A stretch of 63,390 bases of DNA, counting the filler, from Reclinomonas americana ATCC 50394 (lineage: Eukaryota): the NCBI GenBank assembly GCA_048213135.1. It is 15 parts of 7 records of this genome, joined end to end, with 100 filler letters (N's around TTAATTAATTAA, not from the genome) between each part and the next. Parts side by side here need not be neighbours in the genome. Positions count along the whole stretch, not along the records: positions 24,355 to 28,244 come from PS015848.1; 14 more parts are not named here. One strand, written 5' to 3'. Each line of letters begins with the position of its first letter. Position 1 is the first letter of the stretch. A model generated the notes under the pieces. The model did not search any database, was not told the origin of the DNA, and saw nothing but the letters and a program-made list of their open reading frames with translations. Positions 3,346 through 40,200 of this stretch are shown piece by piece. Both the position numbers and the translations under genes were made by a program.

Positions 3346-3866
3346 GGCCGCCCACCTGATTGAGCACAGATAAGAAACGCGATATCCACAGTCGATCCAG
3401 TGAACTCCTCGATTTTTCAATACTCGAAACGAGGCTCATTTGACCGAGAAGGCACTCTCACATGCAGCATAGTGGTCACTGGTCCAGCCCTCGCCCAAAC
3501 CTGCGCTTATCCGGCTTATCCTTCCACTCGAACAAGAAAAACAGCGCCGAATCGCTCAGCAAAGTCTTTGATTTGCAGCTTAGATGATCGTCTAAACCGT
3601 GTTTGGAGTCTAAGAGAACGATAAATCAGTCACATAAGCACGGAGAACCGCGTAATACCATCAGGAGACTGTTTTGCACAGATGGCTATGGAAGAATAGT
3701 GGAAACACGCCACCCTTGGCACTTGGAGTGAGCAACTTCGGTGTCCCGCTTGTCCCGCCAATGCAAATGAATTCACGCACCGCCAGCCCCTTCCCATCCA
3801 TGCACGGCAGCACGCGTATGCTNNNNNNNNNNNNNNNNNNNNNNNNNNNNNNNNNNNNNNNNNNNN

Positions 3867-3878
3867 TTAATTAATTAA
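3867..3878. other. Artificial contig spacer TTAATTAATTAA between N runs (recurs throughout the window)
   Basis: Identical 12-mer with stops in all six frames, always flanked by ~44 Ns (also ~5622, 10080, 16687, 18246, 21997, 24299, 28289, 30362, 35218, 42632, 49026, 51195, 54921). Confidence 0.95.
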
Positions 3879-5684
3879 NNNNNNNNNNNNNNNNNNNNNN
3901 NNNNNNNNNNNNNNNNNNNNNNAACAACTGCGACTGTGCGGGTCTCCCAGTGCGTGATGGATAGCAGTACGGTGCCGAGCCCCTGTGACTCATCGCATCT
4001 CGAGTGGCTGCATCGGCATGTATCTGGACTTGTGCTCCCGCGCTGGTGATTATGTGGCGCGCATCCCCTCCTGCGAGTTCCAGCGGGAACGGTGCTCCGT
4101 GATGCTGTGGGGCCGGGCTGGATTTGCCTACTGCCTTGAGCTCCAGTACCAGCACGCTGCCTCCCAGCCCGACGTCGCCACTCGGCAACTGCTTACGTGC
4201 CACCCTTCCGCCCCTGTCCCTGCTCGACGATTATCTGGCGAATGGCAACCAATGGAGACAGACGTGCTGCGAACAGCTGTCTGGCTCGTTCCATTACGCG
4301 CGGTGACTGGAGCGTCGACTATCATCTGCTGGGAGGTCTCCGTGTGCCGACGGCACGACCCGAGCCGCCTCTCATGGTGATGCAAGTCCCCCACGACTAT
4401 ACCTTTGAGCGCGGCCACCCTCCCTCCCTCCCTTCACGCCCAGTAACAGTGCCACGGTGGGCCTGTCCGCCAACTGAGGTGGAGGGGGGAGCGCTTGCTG
4501 GGCGCATTAGTGGTGAGCACCCGAGCCGATGAGGCCCTACCAATGTGGTACGGTGCCCTTGGCCCGGAGCCACCACTGCCCCACTTGCCGACGCCCGGTG
4601 TGGGTGGGTACTGGATGAGCTACACCCTTCGTCCCTTACCCCACCTGCCCCGTTGGTTGTCATGGGCCGGTTTTCTCTCCGACCCCCTCCAGCGGCCACC
4701 AGTGGCCTGCATGGCCCCCTCCCTTCCTCTCATCATCACCTGCCGTGGAGGTCAGCTACCACTCGCCGGGTGGCTGACTCTCTCACGCGCCCACTTACGT
4801 CCCCCTCCCCACCATGCCCCCTCCACCCCCTCGTTTAACTCACTCCTTCCCCCCACACCTACACAACAATTGAACTCTCGACTCCTCCGTCCTCGACCAT
4901 CTCCCACATCACCCTTGGCTGATCTCTGGTTGACGCAATGCGTAATCGCTGGGTGTGATCCCCTGCATCCCTCTTAGTGGTATCTCGCTGGGTTTGTGCC
5001 GTGGTGCATGTACCAGCGGTAGCCCATGATGCGAGCGGAAGCCACGGGTGTCTGCTTGCGGTATCCCAGCGACCATGATCCATTTGTGTCAACCAGCGGT
5101 CCCTTCGGGTGATGCGTGGAGACTTGCTGCCGCCCGGCTCCTCGTTGGTTTGATCGGTCACCTACGAGAGAGCGCCGACGGGGAGGTAGCAAGAGAGGCG
5201 GATGGCTCGTCGCAACAACACCAAATTGACTATCCTCGATACGCCAGGCCCGTATGGGTATGCGTGATGAAGTCGCCAGGGGTGTTGTAACCACGCGGCC
5301 AGGCACCCCCCCCCTGCGGCCCTCTAAGGGGGGCGAGGGGGGGAATGCCAGCGGTTTTTTCCGCCGCCCCCTTTCGTGTTCCCCGTAGAGACTGCCCTGC
5401 CGACAATGGGTGGTCTGAGGGGCAGAAGAGTGTTTTTACCGGGTCCACAGCCTGATGGAGGCATCAGGGAACCCCGGACAAGGTCGGCCTCGTACAGCGG
5501 AATCTGCCACCCGAATAGGGCGCAGATACTTGGGCACCCGAACACGAATGCCCAAGTTTGCTCGGGCCTGTTGATCTNNNNNNNNNNNNNNNNNNNNNNN
5601 NNNNNNNNNNNNNNNNNNNNNTTAATTAATTAANNNNNNNNNNNNNNNNNNNNNNNNNNNNNNNNNNNNNNNNNNNNTTTATAG

Positions 5685-6413
5685 ATGGCATATAATCAGA
5701 TTTTTAATGACATTGTTGAATTGCAGAATAAAAAAAGTACACAACAAAAAGATGTTAGCACCTTAGATAAATTATTTGAGAAACCCAAAAAAGATAAAGG
5801 ATTAGAGGCAACGACATTTAGTCATCCAACAGCGGGATACTATCAACAGGCTGATTTATTATTTTTGCCAAATGATCAAGGTTATCAGTATTGTTTAGTT
5901 GTTGTTGATCAGGGAAATAGATATGTTGACGCGGAACCACTAAAAGGCAAAAAATAGTAGTGATATATTAAATGCATTCAAAGCGATTTATAAAAGAAAA
6001 ATATTGAGTGTTCCAAGAAATTTAAGGACAGATTCAGGAAGTGAATTTAAAAATGATGTTGTTAAAAAAGGACTGGAACAAATGGGAATTATATTGACAT
6101 TCGCAAAAACTGGCAGACATAGACAAGTCGCACTAGCAGAAAGAAAAAATCAAACTATTGGGACAGTAATTCATAAGATTATTGTTAATGACACTTTGGC
6201 GACTGGTCATTCATCATCTGCGTGGGTTAGTACATTGCCGTCCATTATTACTGTCATTAATATACATGTTGATAAAAAAGAAGATACAAAACCAAAGAAA
6301 AAAGATTTTTCTAATCCCAAATTAAAATTATTAGAAGTGGGGCAAAAAGTAAGGGTAATGTTAGATAATCCGAAAGATGTGACAGGAAATAAATTAAGTG
6401 GAAAGTTTAGATC
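5685..6413 (+). CDS. rve (retroviral-type DDE) integrase, Polinton/virophage-like; one apparent frameshift, 3' end lost in gap
   Basis: QQADLLFLP..GYQYCLVVVDQGNRYVDAEPLK, then RTDSGSEF...LAERKN with exactly 35 residues between D and E, then LEVGQKVRV...GKFR. Removing one A from the A6 run at 5949-5954 joins ORFs 5685-5957 and 6004+ (…GKNSSDILNAFKAIYKRKILSVP…). Confidence 0.88.
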
Positions 6414-6872
6414 NNNNNNNNNNNNNNNNNNNNNNNNNNNNNNNNNNNNNNNNNNNNNNNNNNNNNNNNNNNNNNNNNNNNNNNNNNNNNNNNNNNNNNN
6501 NNNNNNNNNNNNNNNNNNNNNNNNNNNNNNNNNNNNNNNNNNNNNNNNNNNNNNNNNNNNNNNNNNNNNNNNNNNNNNNNNNNNNNNNNNNNNNNNNNNN
6601 NNNNNNNNNNNNNNNNNNNNNNNNNNNNNNNNNNNNNNNNNNNNNNNNNNNNNNNNNNNNNNNNNNNNNNNNNNNNNNNNNNNNNNNNNNNNNNNNNNNN
6701 NNNNNNNNNNNNNNNNNNNNNNNNNNNNNNNNNNNNNNNNNNNNNNNNNNNNNNNNNNNNNNNNNNNNNNNNNNNNNNNNNNNNNNNNNNNNNNNNNNNN
6801 NNNNNNNNNNNNNNNNNNNNNNNNNNNNNNNNNNNNNNNNNNNNNNNNNNNNNNNNNNNNNNNNNNNNNNNN

Positions 6873-7502
6873 AATAGTGTTTTTCTTTTCGTGATATTTT
6901 CTTTTCTTATAATCACGTTGATACTTCTTATATTTATCTGTCTTTGTGTAACATTTTAATGCGTTTATTTTTGATGCCTTCTTTTCTTCATCGGATGCGT
7001 ATTTTGTCTTTCGTGGTATAACTTTAGTGGTTTCATCATTTGTGTGTTCAAATGTGTATTTTTCATTTGATTTTTTTGATATGCCACTTTTAACATTATT
7101 CTTACCGGTGCAACACATAATAACAAGACCGGCATTAATATCTAGTGCTTTTTGACACGCATATGCTGATGAATATATTTCTACTGTGTTATCACTCAAT
7201 TTCGTGGCTTTAATATTCTGTCTATTCTTATGATTGTTTTTAACAAATGAATAATCTTTAGTGTTTGTTTGTGACTTACCATTAATGTGTTCATTTATAA
7301 CTTTATCCCACGACTTGCCATTTAACTTATACTTATCCGAGGTGTGCATAATCTTGTTATGTTTATTTATCAATGTTTTAGTCGTTGGATTAATTCTATA
7401 CTTTTCATACATATCATTATCATAATCATTGCTGTCACTTCTGTAAAATTTTAAGTTTTCATATCCCGTCATATCTGTTTCATAAACTTTAGTTTCTGTC
7501 AT
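6873..7502 (-). CDS. NUMOD1/IENR1-like DNA-binding-motif protein (homing-endonuclease-associated); 3' end lost in gap
   Basis: IKATKLSDNTVEIYSSAYACQKALDINAGLVIMCCTGK resembles the NUMOD1 helix-turn-helix pattern; Lys/Tyr-rich basic tail. Confidence 0.55.
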
Positions 7503-7672
7503 TATTTATAAATGTATATATCACTATATCTTTATATGTTATATAGTGATATTTTTTCAAATTCTTTTTAAAGATCCAAGAATAGATTTTCGAACATGCA
7601 TTACTGACCAAACTTTTTAGTTTGAAATCAAACTTTTTTGTTTGCTGTGCTGTATCCAATATTGGAAATGAA

Positions 7673-8005
7673 TCATAGTTTATCATAAGCATTGTTAAGT
7701 ATACTCTTCAATCTGTCTTCATGATCGACAAACCAATACCTATAATATCCAGATTCCCGATTATGCCATTTCTTCAGAAACTCAAATAATTCATTTTTAA
7801 TGCATGCATCATGTAGCTTTTTACATATATATTTAGTTTGGTTATGCCAACAATGTTTAATAAGTCCTTGATATAAACCTAATAAACGCGATTCTTCGTC
7901 ATTTGTCTCACATCTTAGAAATCCATAATCATATGCGCATGCTAAAGAATAATCAAATGTATCCTTCATAACTATTTCTGCTAAATTATCTACTGATCTT
8001 CTCAT
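7673..8005 (-). CDS. Hypothetical 110-aa protein within the AT-rich element
   Basis: Clean ATG-to-stop ORF with globular composition (DYGFLRCETNDEESRLLGLYQGLIKH...GYYRYWF). Confidence 0.65.
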   Translation of the reverse strand: MRRSVDNLAEIVMKDTFDYSLACAYDYGFLRCETNDEESRLLGLYQGLIKHCWHNQTKYICKKLHDACIKNELFEFLKKWHNRESGYYRYWFVDHEDRLKSILNNAYDKL

Positions 8006-8723
8006 TTTATAATATTCTATATTGTTAATTCTTTAAATCTTATATTACTAAAATTTTTGTGGCTCTATTTTCTCGCCGTCGCAATCATTCTTTTTCCTCG
8101 CCATTCTACTATCTCATTTTTTTAGCCCTTAAAATCATCTTTCCACAACTTTGGAATTTGGAAATGGAAATCTTGCTTTTTTCACTCTTGCTCTATTTTA
8201 TATATATTTTACTATTTTCTTATACTTTATATATTTTCCAATTCCAAAATTCCAATATATATAATACCATATAAATAATATATTAATTAAAAAAATAAAT
8301 AAATATATAAATAAAAATATTTTAACTTTCTGTACATATATAGATTTCTTAAATGGAGAAAAAAAATAAGCAAAGCGTTTTTTCCCGAAACAATGATTTA
8401 ATTTTATGGCTAAGTTTTAGTTTTTAATTTTCGTAAGACGAAAATTTAAAAACATAACCACTAAAAAAAAACTTCGTAACTAAAATAAAATCATAAAATC
8501 GTTTGTTTTGTTTGGTAGAGGCTGGGGGGCACCATGATGTACAAGATGGCGCGTAAGAGTGAACCACCATGCGCTGACATGTGTACAATTGAGTGAGGTG
8601 TTGAGGTTGACATCCTACAAAACGAGCACCTGTGAGACGACAAAGTGTTGGATTTAGAGACATCGAACAAATGCAATGTGTGTTCGAGCGCTTGAAGTAA
8701 AACATTTGTATGTTTAGTAGAGG

Positions 8724-8890
8724 CAAATGTTTGACATTGCGTGACAAATGTTTGACATTGCGCGACAAATGTTTGACATTGCGTGACAAATGTTTGACAG
8801 TGCGTGACAAATGTTTGACAATGCGTGACAAATGTTTGACAGAGTGTGGCAAGAGGGCGACAAATGTTTGCAAAAGTGAGACAAATGTTC
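8724..8890. repeat. 21-bp tandem repeat ACAAATGTTTGACATTGCGTG (about 5 full plus 3 degenerate copies)
   Basis: Read directly; lies just right of the AT-rich island. Confidence 0.92.
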
Positions 8891-10304
8891 ATTAGTTCTC
8901 GTGCATTGCACGTAAAATCCGAGGCAGTGCATAAAAATCAGGGGTGGAAAATGAGGCAGTGCCTCGAAAATCTCGTGCACTGCCTGGGAATGTCCTGACA
9001 AATGCTTGTCTTTTTCGTGCAGTGCATGGCCACTACGACCTAAAACTAAGGTAGGTATCAAAGGATCTAACAAAGGTATCATTTCTCTTCCCACCTATGA
9101 TGATCCTCCCTTGCCACACACACAAACAGCCTCCGCAGATATTCTCCTCTTTGTTTCTCTCTCCAATGCATTCCCATGTGTACACCCTCAGCCGCAACCA
9201 ATCCGTTCCATCCCTCCTCTGTCGATTCTCTCTGTCACACGCATATATTTCCACAGACAGTCTTTTCCTCTCCCTTGTATCTATCCACACATACTTAATC
9301 AACGTATCATTTTCTTCCCCATCGGACGATTCTCTCTGTCACACATACACATTTCCACAGACATCCTTCTCCTCTTCCTTGCATCCATCCACATCATCTA
9401 CCACGACAACTCCTTTCCCTCCCCCCTCTGTATTTCTTCGCATGCCACACGCAATCTCCTCGAACTCACTTCTCTTTGGTTCTCTCTTCCTTGCATCTAT
9501 GCACACACTGTCAACCACAACCAATCCTTTCCCTCCCCCTCTGACGATCTTCTCTTGCCATCCAATCTCCACCGACACACTTCTCTCTGTTTCTCTCTCC
9601 TTCACATCTCCATCCACGCACTCACTGCCGCAACCAATCCGTCTCCTTTCCCTCCTTCTGCTTTCCATCCTTGGTACTCTCATTCTCTCAATCGTTTGCA
9701 TCCACATCTACACAATACCACAACCTATTCATCCCTTGACGGTCCTCTCTTGCGCCACAAACACTCCACGGACACACTTCTCTTTGTTACTCTCCCCAAC
9801 GCGTTCCCATCCACACACTTCCAAAGCTAATCTGTTCCCTTTCTCCCTTCTGTCTTTTCTCTCTTGCAAGGCACACAAATTCAACATACTTTCTTCAGTC
9901 TGTTTCTCTCTCCCTTGCTTTCTCATCAACACACTTCCACCCTCTGTCTCTTCCATGCAAAATGCCTTCAAGAACTTGCTTCTCCTTGCCTCACTTCCCT
10001 CCCTCTGTAACATTCGCCACGCCCCCCCTTTTTTCNNNNNNNNNNNNNNNNNNNNNNNNNNNNNNNNNNNNNNNNNNNNTTAATTAATTAANNNNNNNNN
10101 NNNNNNNNNNNNNNNNNNNNNNNNNNNNNNNNNNNTTACACCCCTTCCCTCTCTACCCCCCTTCCCTCTCTACCCCCATACCTTTTTACGCCCCTTCCCT
10201 CTTCACCCGCCTTCACTCTTTCCCCCTCCCCATTCACCCTCCTTCCCTCTTTCCCCCCTTCCCTCTTCACCTCCCTTCCCTCTCTACCCCCCTTCCCTCT
10301 TCAC

Positions 10305-10930
10305 CACGCAACAATTGTACCCGCCTGGTTGGCCACCACCGACGACGTCTGCACCAGCATACCCGAGGTAACACGAATGTCGCTGTTCGACACCGCCTTG
10401 TACGTCGCCCCTGGAGTGGTTGCCACACAGAATGTGGCATACACCGACTTGGAGCTCGTGAGCTGCACTTTGAACTGTCCACAGCCGCCAGCAACAGATC
10501 CATAGAAGCATGACGACGCATCAAACACGCCGTCTTGGAAGGCCATAAGCGCAAGGGCCGCTGACGAGAGAGAAAGAGAGAGACATGCAAAGAGGGTGAG
10601 CAAAGATCTCCTCCACCAACCGCCCGCGCAAAATCTTATCATTCTCAGCACTCACCCGAAGCCGGACCATTGCAGTCGGATCCAGCGTCGACAACCTTGA
10701 AACGAGTACAATTCGACAACGTGCGTGATGGCGAATGCAACACCAGCGTAGTTGGCACACCGAGAGGCAGAGACTTTGGAGAAATGAAGCCGACATCGGG
10801 GTCGGTGACGGTCGTGATGGTCAATGTCACACCGAGAGGCACATACGAGCCGTCGTGGAAGCTGCGCGCAGATATTTTGTCAGTCGAATAGTCGATATAT
10901 ATCGATGGTGGTGAAACGCCATTAGATCCG
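10305..10930 (-). CDS. Two internal exons of an uncharacterised, probably extracellular beta-rich protein
   Basis: Exon ~10656-10930 ends G|GTGAG and exon ~10305-10560 starts after CAG. They join in frame (...SDCNGPAS-A-ALALMAFQDG...), with GC-rich coding-like composition. Confidence 0.6.
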
Positions 10931-12079
10931 TCGCATTCTCTCTCATCCTTCCACTTTTCTCGTTGAACAAGAAAGAGAATGACAAAAAGTCCCACTCATT
11001 CGCGCATGCAGTCTCTCACTGTCAGTTGCCTACTGTTCCTCAGCCCTCTTGCCTCTCGCAACCGCCCTCTCATTCACATCCTCGCACATCTCTCGCACAT
11101 ACGTGGCTCACCTGCAGCCTCTCACTCATTTTCCCTATTGCCCCTCAGCCCTCTTGCCTCTCACAGCTACCCTCTCATTCACAGCCCACCACGTCCTTCG
11201 CACATACAGAAGATCTACTTCGTGGCTAACCTGCCTCTCCCGCTTTACTTCATCTCTCCTCCCGGCACCCACTGCTTTGTTCTTCCTGCACCACACCATT
11301 CACTCTCACGCCCTTCTCTATATAAAGCAAACCGTTCAATGACCACACTTCAAAAAGATAAGATATACAGCTGAGAATATTTACTGTGCAAATATTATGA
11401 GCATCTCTGGGAACAAATATTGAGTGAAGATGTACTTACCTCTGCGTTGCGGGGACGACATAATCTTTGAGATGTAATTGCGGAACACCGAATGTTCCGA
11501 TGCAATCTGCGATTCATGTGTATTAGTCATTTTGACTTCATTATGAAATAACAAACCACATTCGCAAAATACGCACAAAACCAACGTGCTGCATTCATAG
11601 TCACTGATATGAACAAGCCACATATGCACAACAAGTAGTCAGCCAACAAAACCCACGCACGTGAGTACATACACTCCCTCAACAAGCTCTCCTCTCTACT
11701 CTATCTCTATTCTCCAACATGTACATACACGCACAAGCTCTACCACTCTCTCACGCACACTCTTTCCCCTTCCAGGGCCATGGCCAGTTAACATTCTCAC
11801 ACATACATATACTCATTCATTTTGCAAACAACACAAGCAAAACAAAAACAAAACATACAACAACAACTACAACAACGACAATCACAACCAACACAAGACA
11901 AAATCCCTCACTCTACTCTCTTTCTCCCTCTATGTGTAACTCTATTCCCAAAAATACACACACAAATACTCTCTCTTTCTCTTTTCTACTCTTCCTCTCT
12001 CTCCCTAGCTCTCTCTCCCCTCTCCCTTCTCTCTCTCCTCTCTCTATCTCATACACATATAAACACACGCATACTCAAC

Positions 12080-24496
<12,417 letters not shown>

Positions 24497-24829
24497 CTGC
24501 ATGATCATGCATCCATCGCCATTGTCGCCATGCACACAAAACACACCCACACACGCCACGTGCACAGTCAGTTGACTGCCCGCACACACATATACACACT
24601 CCCAGTCTCTCGCTCATCTCTCTTTCTTCCTCGTTTTCTCCCTTCTTCTCGTATATCCCTCATTCACGCGCGCTCTATTTCCCCCTCTTACAATCCATTC
24701 TCACTTACACACACCGGTACCGGCTGCGAAGTCATACATCCGGGTCGTTGACGTCGTCACATTCAAAAAAACACCGCATACAAGTTATCAGCCAGAGACG
24801 GAAAAAACGGAATCGGCACGCTAACTCAC

Positions 24830-26339
24830 CCTTGCAGCAGCCTCTTGCTGGCGGCGTTGCTGTTCGGCTCGTGCCGCAGCATCCTCAAGAAAACGGGCTT
24901 CCACTGGCGCAAAACGAGCAAGCAGCTACAAGAACGAAAAATCTTAGTTCAACTTATTCACCGACTTCCCACTCTAAATCGGCACACCAGACTGAGTTGT
25001 TGCTCAAACCCCTGTTGTTGACGTCGCAGAAGAAGACTCTGCTCCTGTAGTTGTTGTTCCAGCGCCGACTGTCGCTCTTGCAACCTCTCCTTTTCGCGTG
25101 ACTCGGCGGCAAGTCGTCGATCAAATGTTTCTTGCATGTGTATCAAACTCTCCATGTGACGTTGATCCCTGTCGCGCGCTTCATCCTCCAGCCGCGACAC
25201 AGTCTCTGTCAACTCTAGCACCCGACCATGCAGCTGTAAATAGGCATGGTTAGCTGTGTGATAACACAAAGGATACACAATGCTGCAGTCCCGTACCGCT
25301 CGCAACGGTTGTTCCACGCGGAGTAAGTCGCACAACCGCTCGTGGTCCTGCACCTCACGGCGAGTACCACGCATCTTGCAACCAAGGTCTTCTGCTCGAC
25401 ATGCCGCCGGCGTCATCGCACATTGTTGCGCTGCATCATGCGAATGTGAGAAAATGCCTCCCACGCAAGAAATACGCAAGATCAGAGCCCGCACTCAAGT
25501 GCTGCCGCATGTTTGCAAGCGTACATCCAACACGGCATCGAGGGCATGGCAGCCGGCACACACTGCGACTATGCTGCTTCATCTGGCTCAACGGCAGCCG
25601 CGCACCACATCCATGTGGACATTCGCGAAGACATTCGCTCCAATTATGCTCAGCGATGCGGCCAAGTGTCATTGTCGCTCCACACACGCGGCAGCTGTAC
25701 AGACACACTGACAGAGCATGCGAAGCGTTGTAATCGCCAACGGTCTGCAGCAGGTGAGAAACAACAGAGGTTTCTCCGGGAATGGCGAAGTGTGGATTAC
25801 CATTCGCTGGTAACAAGTTGGACATGCTACCTGCGCAAAAAAAAAAGCAGTGATTACATAAATTGGACCAGCAAACGGGTGATAAGCATGATTCTAAATA
25901 TCATACCTCCAAATTCGCGTAAGTCAACTTTGAACGCCGAATGGGCTCCACCGCGTTGGCCGCTGACGTGACACCACATCCACACCAGTTGGCTCCCTGG
26001 GGAGCCTCGCTCAGGTGCTCTCTGAGTAGCACCGGTCAGCTTGTGTATCCTTCCAATGTACAACCACATCCTGCACTCACCGACACAAGTGATGAACCTC
26101 ATTGGAACAGATTACGAAGTCTGGTTGACAGATGTCCTGGAAGAATGCTTGTGAGTTCACACTGTTTCTCTCTCACATTCTCACTCTCTCACATACACAA
26201 ACGCATCCTCTTCTCCTGCGCATCCCAGCCACGCCATTGACTTGCTTCCCTCCATTCTTTCTGTCTTCCTCTTCCTTTTCGTCCGCTGCTCATTCCCTCT
26301 CGCACCCTCTCATAAAGCCCCCCTCCTCCTCGTCATCCG

Positions 26340-26393
<54 letters not shown>

Positions 26394-27026
26394 NNNNNNN
26401 NNNNNNNNNNNNNNNNNNNNNNNNNNNNNNNNNNNNNNNNNNNNNNNNNNNNNNNNNNNNNNNNNNNNNNNNNNNNNNNNNNNNNNNNNNNNNNNNNNNN
26501 NNNNNNNNNNNNNNNNNNNNNNNNNNNNNNNNNNNNNNNNNNNNNNNNNNNNNNNNNNNNNNNNNNNNNNNNNNNNNNNNNNNNNNNNNNNNNNNNNNNN
26601 NNNNNNNNNNNNNNNNNNNNNNNNNNNNNNNNNNNNNNNNNNNNNNNNNNNNNNNNNNNNNNNNNNNNNNNNNNNNNNNNNNNNNNNNNNNNNNNNNNNN
26701 NNNNNNNNNNNNNNNNNNNNNNNNNNNNNNNNNNNNNNNNNNNNNNNNNNNNNNNNNNNNNNNNNNNNNNNNNNNNNNNNNNNNNNNNNNNNNNNNNNNN
26801 NNNNNNNNNNNNNNNNNNNNNNNNNNNNNNNNNNNNNNNNNNNNNNNNNNNNNNNNNNNNNNNNNNNNNNNNNNNNNNNNNNNNNNNNNNNNNNNNNNNN
26901 NNNNNNNNNNNNNNNNNNNNNNNNNNNNNNNNNNNNNNNNNNNNNNNNNNNNNNNNNNNNNNNNNNNNNNNNNNNNNNCTCTCTCCCACTTCTCTCCTTC
27001 TCTCCTTCTCTCTCTCTCTCCCTTTC

Positions 27027-27057
<31 letters not shown>

Positions 27058-27367
27058 CGGCTCTCTCTTTGTCTGTCTCTCCCTCTCTCTCGCTCACTCT
27101 CACTCTCTCCATCCCACTCCCTCCTCCCTTTCCACCACACACCCTGCACACTGGACACTCATAATCCTGCGCCGTCCGACGACACTCCTCCACCACATTC
27201 TCCATACACACCGGAGGCGGAATGACATTCTCCACCGCCGGTCGATTAACTGCCAGCACCACGCGAAACACAAAGCGCTCCTCGTGCGGAGCCTCGCCCA
27301 CCACAATCACCTCGTCGCCAAGGACGATGTGTGGGTCAGCTGCCGGTGGCGGTGCAGCGGCGGACAT
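24830..27367 (-). CDS. RING- and TRAF-type zinc-finger, coiled-coil protein (TRAF-like E3 ligase), multi-exon
   Basis: Exons ~27143-27367 (MSAAAPPP...DYECPVCR), ~26081-26136 (DICQPDFVICSNEVHHLC), 25801-25830 (VACPTCYQRM), 25495-25744 (CRVCG..EHNWSECLRECPHGCG..HSRSVCRLPCPRCRVGC), 25297-25430 (QCAMTPAACRAEDLGC..DHERLC), 24988-25233 and 24830-24925 (E/Q/R-rich coiled coil). The last ends at phase 0 (AGG|GTGAG) without a stop. Junctions at 25860-26080 are unresolved. Confidence 0.82.
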
Positions 27368-28229: not shown

Positions 28230-31200
28230 GGAGAGTCTGCTGTCNNNNNNNNNNNNNNNNNNNNNNNNNNNNNNNNNNNNNNNNNNNNTTAATTAATTAA
28301 NNNNNNNNNNNNNNNNNNNNNNNNNNNNNNNNNNNNNNNNNNNNCTCCCTTCCGCTTCTCCCTTCCGTCTTCCCCCTTCCGTCTTCCCCCTTCCCTCTTC
28401 CCCCTTCCCTCTTCCCTCTTCCATATCCCCCTTCCCTCTTCCCCCTTCCCCCTTCCCCCTTCCGTGTTCTCCCCGTTCCCTCTTTCCTTCTTCTTCCCTT
28501 TCCCTTGCCCTATTCCCCTCACCCATTCCTCTGCCCCTCCCCTTTCCCCCTCACCCATCTCCCCTGCTCATCGCCTTCCCCCTCGTCACCCCCACAGGCC
28601 GCAACACCACCCTCCACCCCTCCAACCCCCTCTCCCCACCCCCCACCCTCTCGGTTGGCTCCACCACCGCCCTCTCCACCTCCCACACCCCCCTCCTCCA
28701 CCTCTCGAATCTTGCATTCTCCAGCACCACCACCCCCTCCCCACAAGCCATCCACTGGACCGCCCCCATCACCACAACCCCCGCACAAGTCATCATCACC
28801 GACTGCACATTCGACTCTGTCACGATCCTCCTCGACGCGTCCGCCACTGGCTCTGCTCCCTCCACACTCTCCCTGTCATCATCGTCGTTCAGCCACGTGC
28901 GCTCCACTGGAGCTTCCTTCAACTCATCGCCACTCACCGTGGTCGGCGCGTTCACATCCTCCTCCGTCTCCGCATCACAATTCGAGGACTGCTTGAAGAG
29001 TGGCGCCAGCGCTTCCGGCGGAGCCGTATCGTTCTCCGACTTGCGCGACGGTGCCGTGGTGACCATGACGGCCTCAAATTTTACCGACAACGCGGTGATG
29101 GATCCATCGCTGACGCACGACGGAGGATCAGGCGGTGGCGCCGTGTTTGTCAGCGGTGCTGGAGTGCTGAACGTGACGGCCGATGACTGCTCGTTTGTGA
29201 GGAACTCGGCGTCGAGTCTCGCTGGCGATAACACGGGTGGTGGTGCACTACACGCCGCGGCATATGCCGGTGGTCGCGTACATCTGCGCGATACAGGCAG
29301 CTTGTGGCTCAACAACACCGTCTCGCAATGCGGCAACGGTGACTTGACGGCCGTGCCCAGTGGAGCCAACAATGTTGGTGGCGGCGCGATTCACATCTGG
29401 AATGGTGGTGTCGTTGCGATTACAGAGTCATCCTTCTCAGGCAACACGGTGGCGAATTGTGCGTCGGGCGTGCAATGCAGCCCTGGTTCAATGCACTGTG
29501 CGCTGCCTTCAGGGATGACGAATGCGGGAGGTGGAGCGCTGTCTGGTGGTGGGGCGATTTGGATGTTGGCATCGTCCAGTGCTGCTGCGTCGCCGTCGGT
29601 GGAGGTTTGTTGTGAGTTCAAGGTGTTGAAGGAGTCGTCACTCATTCAGCTCGCCTCTCACAGATTGAGCAATGCCGCTTCATCGCCAATCAGGCAGCCA
29701 GTGTTTGCAATGGAGGGAGTTACACATCAGGCGATGGAATATCGGGCCATCACTGCGGTGGCGGTGGGCTGTGGATTGACTCTGTTGCAGAGATCAAGGT
29801 ATTGGTGCGTGAACAGCGGTTGGTTGATTTTCTTGCTCACTCTCCCTCAGATTTCGGCAAGCGTGTTTACGGGTAATCTCGTAACACGGATTGCGAATGG
29901 CGGAGTCAACAATGTCGGCAGCAGTTCCTCCACAGGCAGCGTGGTCGGCGGAGGAGCCATCTGGTGGCGGTCTCCGGATCATGCGCCAGCCGTTGTGCAA
30001 CAGGTGAGGAGGGAGGGGAAGGGACGAAGTAAGCGAGCGTGGAAGCAAGGAATGCAGAGTGAATGAGTGAGGGAGAGAGAGAGAGAGAGATAGAGAAGAG
30101 GGGTGGCTGAGAGAAGTCAGAAGAGAGAGAACAAAGGACACAGAGCAAGACAACAAGAAGGAGAAGACGAGATGTATGGGAACGAGAAGTGGGAACGAGA
30201 GTGGGAACGAGAGTGGGAACGGGAGTGGGAACGGGAGTGGGAACGGGAGTGGGAACGGGAGTGGGAACGGGAGTGGGAACGGGAGAGTGGGAACGGGAGA
30301 GTGGGAATGGGAGTGGGNNNNNNNNNNNNNNNNNNNNNNNNNNNNNNNNNNNNNNNNNNNNTTAATTAATTAANNNNNNNNNNNNNNNNNNNNNNNNNNN
30401 NNNNNNNNNNNNNNNNNCTCCTTCCCCTCCTTCCCCTCCTTCCCCCTCCCTTCCCCCTCCCTTCCCCCTCCTTCCCCCTCCTTCCCCCTCCTTCCCCCTC
30501 CTTCCCCCTCCTTCTCCCTTAGCCACCTTCCTCATCCTCTTTCCCCCACCGCTGTGCAGATCGTGGACTCCATATTCGACTCCAACTCGGCAAGCGCAAT
30601 CACTCAGCAGGTCGATAATAATCCACACGCCCTGCTGATGGACTCCGTGTCTGCCGATGTTGTTGGCGGTGGGGCCATTCTCACGTACTCTGGCGTGGCC
30701 GATGACGATGCGTCGACTCGTCTTCAAGTTGCGCTGATCAGCGTTGCTGCTTTATGATGCGTTGCTCAACCAAGCCTGTTTCAGGACATTCGAAACACGA
30801 CGTTTGTGCTCAACTCCGTCTCCAATGCTGCCACCGGACGCAACGTGTATGCCTCTGTCGTTGGCGGTGGCGGCCTGTTGACGTATTTTGGGAGTGGCGG
30901 CCAGAGCACACAGGTGCGATCTTTCAGTTTGCATCAAGTAGAGGAGAGGGCGAGGCTGACTTTTGTCGGCAGGCACTCCAAAACTGCACCTTTGTCAACA
31001 ACCAAGTCAGCGACAGTGGCCTATCTCTTACCGTCGAAGGTGAGACACGTTGCGATCTTCATTTCTTGCACGCCTCGCTTATCTTGTGCGCAGAGAGCGT
31101 GCTGAACTTCGCCGGCGGAGGTGCTGCGCTCACGCACGCAGTGAACGCTGTATCCATCTCCCAGGTTAGGCGCTGTTCCTGCCGAACCCGCCTATCGTAG

Positions 31201-37200: not shown

Positions 37201-40200
37201 ATTTCTCTCTTTGTATCATTTCCCCCTCACACCCCCTTTCCCCTTTATTCCCCCTCACTCCCTTTCCATATCTTCCCCTCTCTCTCCCGTTCTCTCCTCA
37301 TTTGTCTTCTTTTCTCTTTGTGTCTTTTCCCCCCTTACACCCCATTTCCCTCCCTTCCCCTTCCCATTCCCTCAATCCCCCTTCCCCTTTCCCTCCCCTC
37401 ACTCCTTTCCCCATTNNNNNNNNNNNNNNNNNNNNNNNNNNNNNNNNNNNNNNNNNNNNNNNNNNNNNNNNNNNNNNNNNNNNNNNNNNNNNNNNNNNNN
37501 NNNNNNNNNNNNNNNNNNNNNNNNNNNNNNNNNCTCTCTCTCTCTCTCTCTCTCCTCTCTCCTCCTCTCTCTCTCTCTCTCTCTCCTTCCCTCCCTCCCT
37601 CCCCTCCCCCCCCCCACCCAGTGGGTCCTCCACAACAACACCTACCTCTCCAACACCTCCTCCAACGACGGCACCGGCGGCCTCTCCACCCTCTTCGGCG
37701 CCGAAGGCAGCAAGCGCAACGGCGGTGGCGCCCTCATGCTCCTCAACAATGTCGTCGTCTCCTCCTCCCAATTCCTCGGCAATCGCGTGGAGGACGCTGG
37801 CGTAGGACGCGGCCTCTCTGCCTCGGGATCTCTGTGCGGCGGCGGCGCCATCCTGCTCCTGAATGGAGCCTCCGTGGCCACGTCGGCGATTATCGGCAAC
37901 TCCGTGTCGTCGTCGGTCCCGCAAGTCATTGCCGGTCACTCGTGCGGCGGCGGTGGCCTGTTGGTGGACACCATTGGCGTTGTTTTCAACAGCACTGTCG
38001 TCGGCAACAACGTATCGGGTGCGCTGATCAGTGGCGGCGGCGTGCTTCTGGGCCAGGGCTCCATGTTGAATCGTGTGACGGTGGCCGGCAATATCGCCGA
38101 GTTTGCTGGTGGCGGTCTCTCGGTGTATGGAACCGATGGAGTGCTGGTGAATTCGACGATAGCGCAGAATGGAGCGGGAGGTTACGGAGGCGGCATTGTG
38201 GTCATCGAGGTCGCCACCATCTGCCAGCTGCTTGGAGTGCAGCTGGTGGAGAATGTGGCAGTCTATGGTGGCGGCATTGCCATGGTCAGCCCGTTCTCCA
38301 CGCTGACCGTGCTGTCGTCGTTGATGCACGGCAATGTGGCGCAACGCAACGGCGGTGCCGCGTTCATCACGGCCATTGCCGTGTTCCAGGTGGCGGCGCA
38401 GACGGTGGCGTCGAACAATCGGGCCCTGAGTTTCGGCGGCTGCATGTTTGCCAATTCGCAAGCCACCTCGGTGTGGACCGACTCCTTCATTGTGGACAAC
38501 ACGGCGGTGTTTGGCAGCGCTGTGGCGGTGTCGGAGAACAGTGTGCATACATTTGTGCGTTCGTACATTGAGCGAAACAAGGGCGCCGACGGCAGCGGGC
38601 TGTACGCCGTCGGCGAATCGATAGTGACGCTGGACACGTGCCTGGTGACTGGCAACGAGGCCTCGCTGGCCGGCGGCGGCATGTACATTTCCGAGCTGGC
38701 AGTTGTCACCACTAGCGAGACGGCATTTACCGACAATGTAGCGGCCACCACCGGCGGCCACGTGTACGCGCGCGGGCGTGCCAAGTGGGACGACAGTGGG
38801 AGTCAATTTATGCGTGGGCGAGCGCAAGACGCCGGCGGAGGAGCGTTTCTGGGTGGCACGGCACGCTCACGTCTCGACACGACTCACTTTCGTGACAATG
38901 TCGTCACCGATGGCGTCGGCGGCGCCATGTCGGTGATAGAGAGGGCGTTTGTGTCCCTCGCACACGGTTCATTGGTAGGCAATCGCGCACTGACGGGCGG
39001 CGCGGCGTCGATCGAGGGCGACTCCACTGTCATCCTCGACGCGGTGCGTGTCGACTCGAATCAGGCGCTGGCGGCCGGCGGAGGCTTCCTCATCAGCGAC
39101 GCGAGCAACGTGACGTGCACGCACTGCGTCTTCACGAGCAATGCGGCATTGCGCGGCGACGGCGGCGGCGCCAGTGTCGCAAGCAGTTCGCGCACCAGCT
39201 TTATCCAGTCGTCGTTTGTAGACAACCGCACCGGCAGCCGCGGCGGAGGCCTCGCCGTCAACATGACCGACACTGCGTCGGCGCCATTTGTGGCGGGTGT
39301 GGCACTTGATCGAGTGGATTTCACCGGCAATGCCGCATTTGGAACGGGAGACAGTGATGCCACGCAGCTGCTGGGCGAGGGTGCCGGCGGTGGTGTGTAT
39401 TGGAACGGTGGTGGCGATCCCGCCCTGCTGGTGCCGTTGTATCAGGCGTTTCAGTTTATGGGTGGATGGCGTGAGTGGATGGAGGCGCATCGGGTGACCG
39501 CCGCAGGCAATGTCGCCACCAGTGTGAATGCCACGGATGTGGGGAGCAGTTGCGGAGCGGGAGGGAGGGGAAGGGGGTGAAGGGGGAAGGGATGTGGGGA
39601 AAAGGGGGAAGAGAGGTTTCGTTCAGCGTGGCTTCGGCTTCTCTCTGATATTTTGAACGCAGACAAGAGGTGTGGGTGTGTACACTCGTTGCTTCTTCTG
39701 TTTTGGTGTGTGTCGCCTTTTGCCATTTCACACGCGCATTCCTTTACCCGCGTAACTTTCCCTCGTTCATCTTCTCTCTTCTCGACCTCGCCTCTGCCCT
39801 TCTTCCTCTCTACCCTCTCTTCCTCTACCCTATTCGTCTCTTCTCATTCTCGTTCTCATTCTCGTTCTCATTCTCATTCTCATTGTCGTTCTCATTCTCA
39901 TTCTCATTCTCATTCTCGTTCTCATTCTCATTCTCATTCTCATTCTCATTTTCTTTCTTTGTCATTCATAGTTCTTTGTTCTCCCATCTTTCCTACCTAT
40001 CTTTACTGATCTGTCCTTCCTATTGCACATGCGGAGAGTGAGTGACAACACGTTGATTGTTCCTTATCTCTCTTCCTGTACGCTTTGTGAGAGATGCATC
40101 GATTTGACCCGCTTCCCCTTGTTGCCAGCCTTCTCTCTTTTTGTTGCTCATGTCAGGGGAGACCAGAAGTAGAGTAATATGTTCTTGCTTTCTGAAAGTT

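Follow-up and report, generated by a model that had tools for sequence, protein, structure and literature searches.

Analysis of a 63,390-nucleotide (nt) stretch of DNA from Reclinomonas americana ATCC 50394 (called the window here, at its full length and with filler included) revealed a gene for a RING-like, TRAF-zinc-finger, coiled-coil protein on the minus strand, followed on the same strand by an array of long repeats, apparently about twenty, each of which has the layout of an intron and surrounds one free codon. Judged from the signals in the DNA, it is rather probable that the units of this array are spliced at all. That they are spliced onto the open reading frame (ORF) of the TRAF-like gene, as a short tail of single codons, is a tentative proposal to which we give less than even weight. 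A previous sequence-only reading had placed the array where a MATH recognition domain would normally be expected after the coiled coil; whichever way the array is read, the claim of a missing TRAF domain should be dropped.

The array and its two outermost cores have the following positions:

11797..24679, minus strand: tandem array of intron-like units, 12.9 kb, delimited by nhmmer with a unit profile of 9 complete units
24494..24513, minus strand: first core and triplet GGA (24496-24494); the acceptor box ends in CAG at 24497; same uninterrupted piece as the gene
12080..12099, minus strand: last core and triplet CGA (12082-12080); weak donor; read-through gives RVEYACVYMCMR*

Both ends of the array are incomplete by the unit profile: at its start only the last third of a unit is present, and at its end only the first half. 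The core motif, GATGCATGATCATGCAG, is visible in 17 copies from 24513 to 12083, all of them on the minus strand, and at least two further cores are probably hidden in N gaps. When both strands were searched with up to 3 mismatches, 29 matches were found against 0.29 expected, and none of 100 shuffled sequences reached this number. Where no gap intervenes, the cores stand 434-710 nt apart; the units are about 430-720 nt long. In each of the 16 readable units, exactly 3 nt lie between the CAG of the core and the following GT. These triplets are of 10 kinds (CGA four times, GGA three times, GAC twice, and TCG, CCG, TAC, GTG, GCG, TTG and TTT once each), and their columns rank first, third and fifth for variability among 321 columns (14 units). 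Identity in the triplet columns is 0.41 and entropy 1.55-1.88 bits, in contrast with 0-0.5 bits in the flanking positions (33 nt upstream and 10 nt downstream).

Comparison of the 9 complete units revealed exactly three blocks with at least 95% identity in 8-column windows, namely a CTGAC box, a 35-nt box ending in CAG, and the donor (GTGTGGTCGACTGACTGTGCATGTGGCGTGTTT, ACGGCGACAATGGCGATGGATGCATGATCATGCAG and GTGAGTATGCGT). The mean identity was 0.97 in the three boxes, compared with 0.77 in a middle block that contains no microsatellite and 0.75 in the rest of the unit. Because of the difference from this middle block, the boxes look as if they were under selection or constraint, and not merely slow to mutate or free of microsatellite slippage. 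The window contains 10 copies of CAGNNNGTRAGT where 1.53 are expected, and 9 of the copies lie within the array. TGCATG occurred 43 times in 11.1 kb of array, compared with about 3 expected from base composition, and TGCATG-like hexamers occupy fixed places in all three boxes; its strand bias is not evidence for a function at the RNA level, since base composition explains the bias.

The signals in a unit follow the order donor, CTGAC box, AG-free G/T tract and acceptor, read on the strand that carries the TRAF-like gene. Ahead of each of the 17 acceptors lies an AG-free zone of 77-150 nt, and CTGAC was inside this zone in 16 of them. For three units tried, the probability that 97 shuffled bases would contain no AG was 0 to 0.002; these shuffles were mononucleotide, and the units are copies of each other and hence do not represent 17 independent tests. 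The CTGAC box was found 75-121 nt upstream of the acceptor, a distance that varies by 46 nt, which is compatible with a branch point and a following AG-free tract, not with a promoter-to-start spacing. On the basis of these signals, an array unit appears to have the anatomy of an intron, with its elements in the order that the spliceosome needs, and it is very difficult to account for the conserved boxes other than as splice signals. We also considered the perfect 14-nt palindrome in the core, TGCATGATCATGCA, as an RNA hairpin, and did not retain it: substitutions were about evenly wobble-compatible and disruptive, which is uninformative.

The region of the array is interrupted by seven gap stretches, four of which are fixed linkers of 100 nt (44 N, TTAATTAATTAA, 44 N) of the kind found throughout the window:

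3823-3922, 5578-5677, 10036-10135, 16643-16742, 18202-18301, 21953-22052, 24255-24354 and 7 others: fixed 100-nt gaps

Such interruptions might point to an assembly artefact, or the array might be a different element altogether, such as a spliced-leader-type small-RNA array, a protein-coding repeat, or transposon copies with 3-bp target duplications. Indeed, a tandem repeat of about 600 bp in which each copy carries a conserved stretch up to a GT donor is reminiscent of spliced-leader arrays. We consider this group of explanations very improbable. Since the repeat register is roughly kept across the linkers inside the array, these behave like sized gaps rather than arbitrary contig joins, and the triplets differ between independent sequence pieces. 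At the linker 24255-24354, where a mis-join had been feared, the unit profile found 121 nt in place of 114 model positions; because the register is kept, we saw no sign of a mis-join. Unlike spliced-leader arrays, the units have no conserved block beyond the donor box, including none resembling an Sm site, the upstream box stands at no fixed distance from the core (the spacing varies by 46 nt), and no spliced-leader or other Rfam match beyond low-complexity was found over three units even at E<=5. Scans of the units with Rfam and for tRNA gave only low-complexity matches to the mir-297 model. A coding repeat was rejected because, of 10 gap-free units, just one has a length divisible by three, and the open frames differ between units. 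Finally, the unit ends are, by eye, not inverted repeats of each other.

We also searched for similar elements elsewhere. A metagenome scan for the core followed by NNNGT returned 14 loci, 13 of them at a G+C content of 63-71% and one at 43%; each had a single match, none shared the flanking sequence of the core, and none formed an array. A search with the motif as a text string found no paper containing it, and no such array was found among the reports listed by searches on tandem or 3-nt microexons and on introners with 3-bp target duplications. Within the array, one irregular unit shows a (GA)n run passing into short GGTA/GGTAC repeats right before a linker gap (22080-22200, minus strand), and this unit may hide a degenerate core.

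The TRAF-like gene is real. It comprises 8 exons on the minus strand (27367-24830; 1152 nt, 384 codons) without an internal stop, with all introns of the GT..AG type, and its protein starts with MSAAAPPPAADPH. Six of the 7 introns are 56-76 nt long, and intron 1 contains the N gap 26394-26978. All 8 donors have a purine at +3; ahead of the acceptors, the AG-free zones are just 9-61 nt, and CTNAC-like motifs, where present, lie near the AG. The exons are as follows:

27143..27367, minus strand: exon 1, ATG at 27367; its end (...YECPVCR) carries the first Cys pair of the RING-like motif; from ORF and GT donor
26081..26136, minus strand: exon 2 (DICQPDFVICSNEVHHLCR), with the N gap in the preceding intron
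25907..26021, minus strand: exon 3, from the gene model
25801..25830, minus strand: exon 4 (VACPTCYQRM), where the alignments of zf-TRAF relatives begin and cross the junction
25495..25744, minus strand: exon 5, TRAF-type zinc fingers, from HMMER relatives, Pfam of the relatives, and Atlas
25297..25430, minus strand: exon 6, end of the zinc-finger region, with alignments spanning the exon 5/6 junction
24988..25233, minus strand: exon 7, long helix (coiled-coil stalk), from AlphaFold2
24830..24925, minus strand: exon 8, ending in phase 0 at AGG/GTGAGT, with 24830 as the last exon base

The gene had been described as encoding a RING, TRAF-type zinc fingers and a coiled coil, of which the zinc fingers and the helix are sound. 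Direct matches to zf-TRAF were weak: Pfam searches on single exons gave E=0.0066 for exon 6 and E=0.97 for exon 5, both short of the Pfam cut-off, and the assignment rests on kinship with relatives, alignments across exon junctions and Atlas. A HMMER search with exon 5 (83 amino acids, aa) against 1.8 billion representatives at E<=0.001 revealed 24 relatives, the best with E=4.9e-7 and with 31-44% identity over the fingers, so that exon 5 has no close relative by this search. Eighteen of the 24 were scanned with Pfam, excluding P0003, P0006, P0021 and P0023 (very long) and P0017 and P0024 (short). zf-TRAF was above the cut-off in 16 of the 18 and MATH in none; other domains were ankyrin repeats in five proteins, RRM in one, and RING together with F-box in one. 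Residues of about 133-264 of the spliced model align to the finger repeats of the relatives, and because these alignments cross the exon 4/5 and 5/6 junctions, both splice sites are supported. In Atlas, exon 5 scored 0.95 to zf-TRAF and TRAFD1/XAF1 clusters, which were the nearest ones; this placement serves only as supporting evidence because its recognition value (2067) is lower than the 2300 reached by most known families. A word-based protein search with exon 5, at longer lengths, gave no match, and its comparison with solved structures gave chance-level matches only (TFIIIA, E=0.0057; TRAF6, E=0.65). AlphaFold2 predicted exon 7 as a single 80-residue helix (residues 2-81) with a predicted local distance difference test (pLDDT) value of 96.6.

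The putative RING, on the other hand, is seen only as an atypically spaced Cys/His pattern across exons 1-4 (C-x2-C-x10-C-x4-H-x2-C-x2-H, then C-x-C or C-x2-C). It gave no profile match on single-exon translations and did not align to the RING of P0014, the sole relative with such a domain. By eye, without a predictor being run, the first exon has no start resembling a signal peptide.

MATH matched none of the exon translations. Downstream of 24830, it was also absent at E<=0.01 from 114 minus-strand ORFs, which remained of 145 ORFs of at least 40 aa after exclusion of 31 low-complexity ones. The observation that no MATH domain is visible was hence correct, but the expectation of one was not borne out, given its absence from all the scanned zinc-finger relatives and the zf-TRAF and TRAFD1/XAF1-type identity of the nearest Atlas clusters. 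A TRAF-type zinc-finger protein without MATH is ordinary; since such proteins commonly do without this domain, nothing is missing at the end of the gene. TRAF7 offers a parallel, being described (PMC12387233) as having WD40 repeats and no TRAF-C domain. Like TRAF7 and TRAFD1/XAF1-type proteins, the protein studied here combines TRAF-type zinc fingers, which may come with or without RING or coiled coil, with the absence of MATH. Unlike TRAF7, it has no WD40 or other C-terminal domain, its RING is atypical, and no orthologue is known. With the canonical TRAF1-6 it shares TRAF-type fingers and a predicted coiled coil after them, whereas their C-terminal TRAF-C/MATH domain was not found here.

The elements in the short interval between the gene and the array are as follows:

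24821..24829, minus strand: GTG AGT TAG, a consensus donor and also Val-Ser-stop if unspliced, from the reading frame
24724..24829, minus strand: candidate intron 8, 106 nt, without homology to the array unit
24709..24723, minus strand: bridge exon in its 15-nt form (PVPVC), followed by GTAAGT, ending in phase 0

As had been reported, the gene lies on the same strand directly upstream of the array, which begins within about 140 nt of it, and the 8-exon model confirmed that exon 8 ends in phase 0 at 24830, on a donor matching the consensus in 9 of 9 positions. The description of this end as lacking a stop is misleading, because read-through of the donor gives GTG AGT TAG and the ORF can end as ...AAARVS*. 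The bridging acceptor (TTCGCAG, ending at 24724, with 24723 as the next base) was also confirmed. Three donors, all preserving the frame, had been listed after it; we found GT at exon lengths of 3, 9, 11, 13, 15 and 19, of which three keep the frame and three break it, as expected by chance, and the earlier list held only the frame-keeping ones. A consensus donor (GTAAGT) follows the 15-nt form alone; those of the 3-nt and 9-nt forms are weaker. If the bridge is read unspliced, it gives PVPVCVSENGL* with TAA at 24690-24688. The GTAAGT donor lies 211 nt ahead of the first array acceptor, and the CTGAC box for this step is supplied by the first, partial unit. The gene could end in three ways, each of them without a domain: at VS*, in an ordinary short last exon, or by splicing onward. 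By eye, the candidate 106-nt intron and the sequence past the last unit gave the impression of degenerate units, which the unit profile did not confirm.

The proposal that the array is spliced onto the TRAF-like ORF, which we rate above each single alternative, would involve several steps. First, splicing of some transcripts would start from the consensus donor at 24830/24829, so that the TAG is lost. Second, exon 8 would be joined to the acceptor at 24724, and the 15-nt bridge exon would be left at GTAAGT. Third, stepwise resplicing would proceed through the array, each unit being excised as an intron with one codon left behind; as every array exon is 3 nt long, any subset of exons would keep the frame. 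The E3-like protein itself would be unchanged and would gain only a short tail of at most about 20-27 residues, unstructured and possibly variable, not a recognition domain. In favour of such a link, the gene and the array lie on one strand, a consensus donor follows both exon 8 and the 15-nt bridge with the reading frame in phase 0, and the first core shares one uninterrupted piece of sequence with the gene. The register kept across the linker 24255-24354 and the start codon that the next gene has of its own point the same way. Transcription of the array, use of its sites by the spliceosome, its connection with the TRAF-like mRNA and the variability of the product are all inferred from the DNA. 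The suggested role of the array peptide in partner recognition or protist immunity is pure inference and found no support.

In a bolder version, about 20 single-codon cassette exons would form a bank, each borne by a copy of one specialised intron with boxes that attract a dedicated splicing factor, and very many different C-terminal peptides could be produced in combination by one gene on its E3-like scaffold. Any subset of such cassettes could be included without breaking the frame, because the exons are 3 nt long and the TRAF-like ORF enters in phase 0. We know of no description so far of combinatorial protein diversification by single-residue exons, and we consider this version quite unlikely.

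A number of observations weigh against splicing of the array onto the ORF. First, an in-frame TAG (24823-24821) stands 6 nt beyond exon 8, the segment 24829-24724 has no homology to the array unit by the unit profile, and the core profile matched the bridge acceptor only weakly, although in register (E=0.61). Second, the splice signals of the array differ from those of the gene: GTT donors were found in 7 of 16 readable units (GTTGAG in six, GTTGCG in one) and are absent among the 8 donors of the gene; the array acceptors have no pyrimidine tract and a branch-like box 75-121 nt away, unlike the gene's own introns; and the putative introns are about ten times longer than its usual ones (430-720 vs 56-76 nt). 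Third, the 35 invariant bases, including the palindrome, exceed what a 3' splice site needs. Fourth, the sequence after the last unit shows no clear terminal exon, the seven gap stretches leave both the order of the units and their number uncertain, and the lack of a stop among the 16 triplets is uninformative, having a chance probability of 46%.

Several of these observations would suit an alternative in which the gene ends at TAG 24823-24821 or, after an ordinary last intron, at TAA 24690-24688, and the array is a satellite that is not transcribed or not spliced, with boxes that serve as sites for a DNA-binding protein and a triplet that is an uncontacted spacer. In that case there is a stop directly past exon 8 and a second possible ending, and array homology begins only at about 24679, beyond both stops. 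The palindrome in the core is of the kind that dimeric DNA binders prefer, the recurrent TGCATG-like hexamers in all three boxes would suit a DNA-binding protein, and the boxes are far longer than splice signals require. Donors off consensus in 7 of 16 units, a unit length ten times that of the gene's usual introns, and the lack of any Rfam or protein family match agree with it as well. A short conserved protein-binding box in diverged tandem units, with some box positions unconstrained, is known from the CENP-B box of alpha satellite. However, a satellite gives no reason for CAG and GTGAGT to flank a free triplet on the strand of the neighbouring gene, and it leaves unexplained the third box with CTGAC, the intervening AG-free tract, and the phase-0 consensus donors of both the last exon and the bridge. 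Unlike CENP-B-type satellites, the array has three boxes, which on that strand correspond in the correct order to branch point, acceptor and donor, and by a rough estimate such a combination of signals is far below chance even allowing for the many windows scanned. Taken together, we consider a satellite somewhat unlikely.

It might also be that the units are spliced but non-coding, either as introns of the 3' untranslated region of the TRAF-like gene (after VS* or PVPVCVSENGL*) or in a separate non-coding transcript, with the triplets as neutral scars and selection acting on the removal of the unit or on a released product. This explanation, which we regard as unlikely, draws on the same splice-signal anatomy as splicing onto the ORF; stops are available ahead of the array, the triplets, of which 10 kinds occur among 16 and whose entropy approaches the maximum, seem to be free of constraint, and the middle block with an identity of 0.77 could be an intron-borne element. 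On the other hand, use of the perfect donor at 24830 leaves the frame open into the array by default, no small-RNA family was detected in the units, and either a promoter or retention of intron 8 would be required.

Returning to splicing onto the ORF, the closest known architecture, by analogy, would be that of the micro-exon genes (MEGs) of Schistosoma, and the closest mechanism would be recursive splicing. A preprint on MEGs (10.1101/2023.06.21.545858) describes many very short, frame-keeping exons, introns of 0.1-5 kb and 10-20 exons per gene, with exon lengths of 3-81 bp in the abstract and 6-81 bp, mostly 15 bp, in the introduction; variation of MEG proteins is attributed there to alternative splicing. 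The likeness lies at the DNA level only: frame-keeping spacers of 3 nt in all 16 readable units, between units of 430-720 nt. Unlike in MEGs, the array exons are all exactly 3 nt, and the introns would be tandem copies of one unit with near-identical splice-site boxes. MEG products are secreted, whereas the gene adjoining the array encodes an intracellular zinc-finger and coiled-coil protein. MEGs also belong to flatworms; the present host is not a flatworm, its DNA has about 50% G+C, and most of its introns are about 60 nt.

The ratchet points of Drosophila are described in two reports (10.1101/006163, PMC8605326) as acceptors directly beside donors in a long intron, which is removed stepwise with a new donor at each step. 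Ratchet points leave 0 nt, whereas each step in the array would leave 3 nt, three bases always lying between CAG and GT; moreover, ratchet sites are independent sites in a unique intron and those of the array are copies of one repeat. Animal neural microexons, some of them only 3 nt long, need special intronic signals, and the array triplets are flanked by a long AG-free tract and TGCATG hexamers. (U)GCAUG is the RBFOX motif. Of two further reports, one concerns the regulation of micro-exons by RBFOX and PTBP1 (PMC4317164), and the other describes a lengthened sequence between branch point and 3' splice site (PMC12871342). In contrast with neural microexons, which are single, dispersed and conserved as coding sequence, the array consists of about 20 tandem copies with unconstrained codons.

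If the array is spliced, it would be the most extreme micro-exon architecture known to us, with one-codon exons in tandem and about 80 conserved intronic bases per unit, and it would provide a natural system for the handling of a 3-nt exon by the spliceosome and for stepwise resplicing that writes a variable peptide. If it is not, it would be an unusual satellite whose boxes mimic branch point, acceptor and donor, and a warning for gene finders.

The next gene lies beyond the array on the same strand:

11440..11623, minus strand: probable first exon of the next gene, ATG at 11623 and donor GTAAGT, from the reading frames
10656..10958, minus strand: exon 2 of the next gene, an open frame joined across a 481-nt intron

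Its product has a hydrophobic, Cys-rich start, and no Pfam family matched within 10656-11623. Since it begins at an ATG of its own and can do without the array, it is probably a separate gene, as far as the reading frames indicate.

The window as a whole is eukaryotic DNA of about 50% G+C with short GT..AG introns and numerous (GA)n and (GT)n tracts, interrupted by N gaps. A block at 6000-8400 is very low in G+C (23% in 6001-8000 vs about 50% around it), and its ORFs gave a weak match to an integrase core (rve, E=0.0099) and a match to a baculovirus RING-like domain (E=0.00035); this block may be a mobile element, a viral insertion, or foreign sequence joined by the assembly. Two further tandem repeats, both unrelated to the array, occupy 8724-8841 and 9223-9654; in one, a 21-nt unit is repeated 5.6 times (95% matches), and in the other, units of about 104-113 nt occur about twice each. 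On the plus strand, large ORFs with GGGA-rich repeats occupy 28600-30066 and 37640-39577. The former has no Pfam match; the best database relatives of the latter show 23-43% identity, and most of them carry polymorphic-membrane-protein or beta-helix repeat families. Finally, an ORF at 1170-1613 on the minus strand matched the NHL repeat (E=0.00018); it adjoins a long ORF at 3-860 for which no Pfam match was found, and is probably part of a large surface-protein gene.

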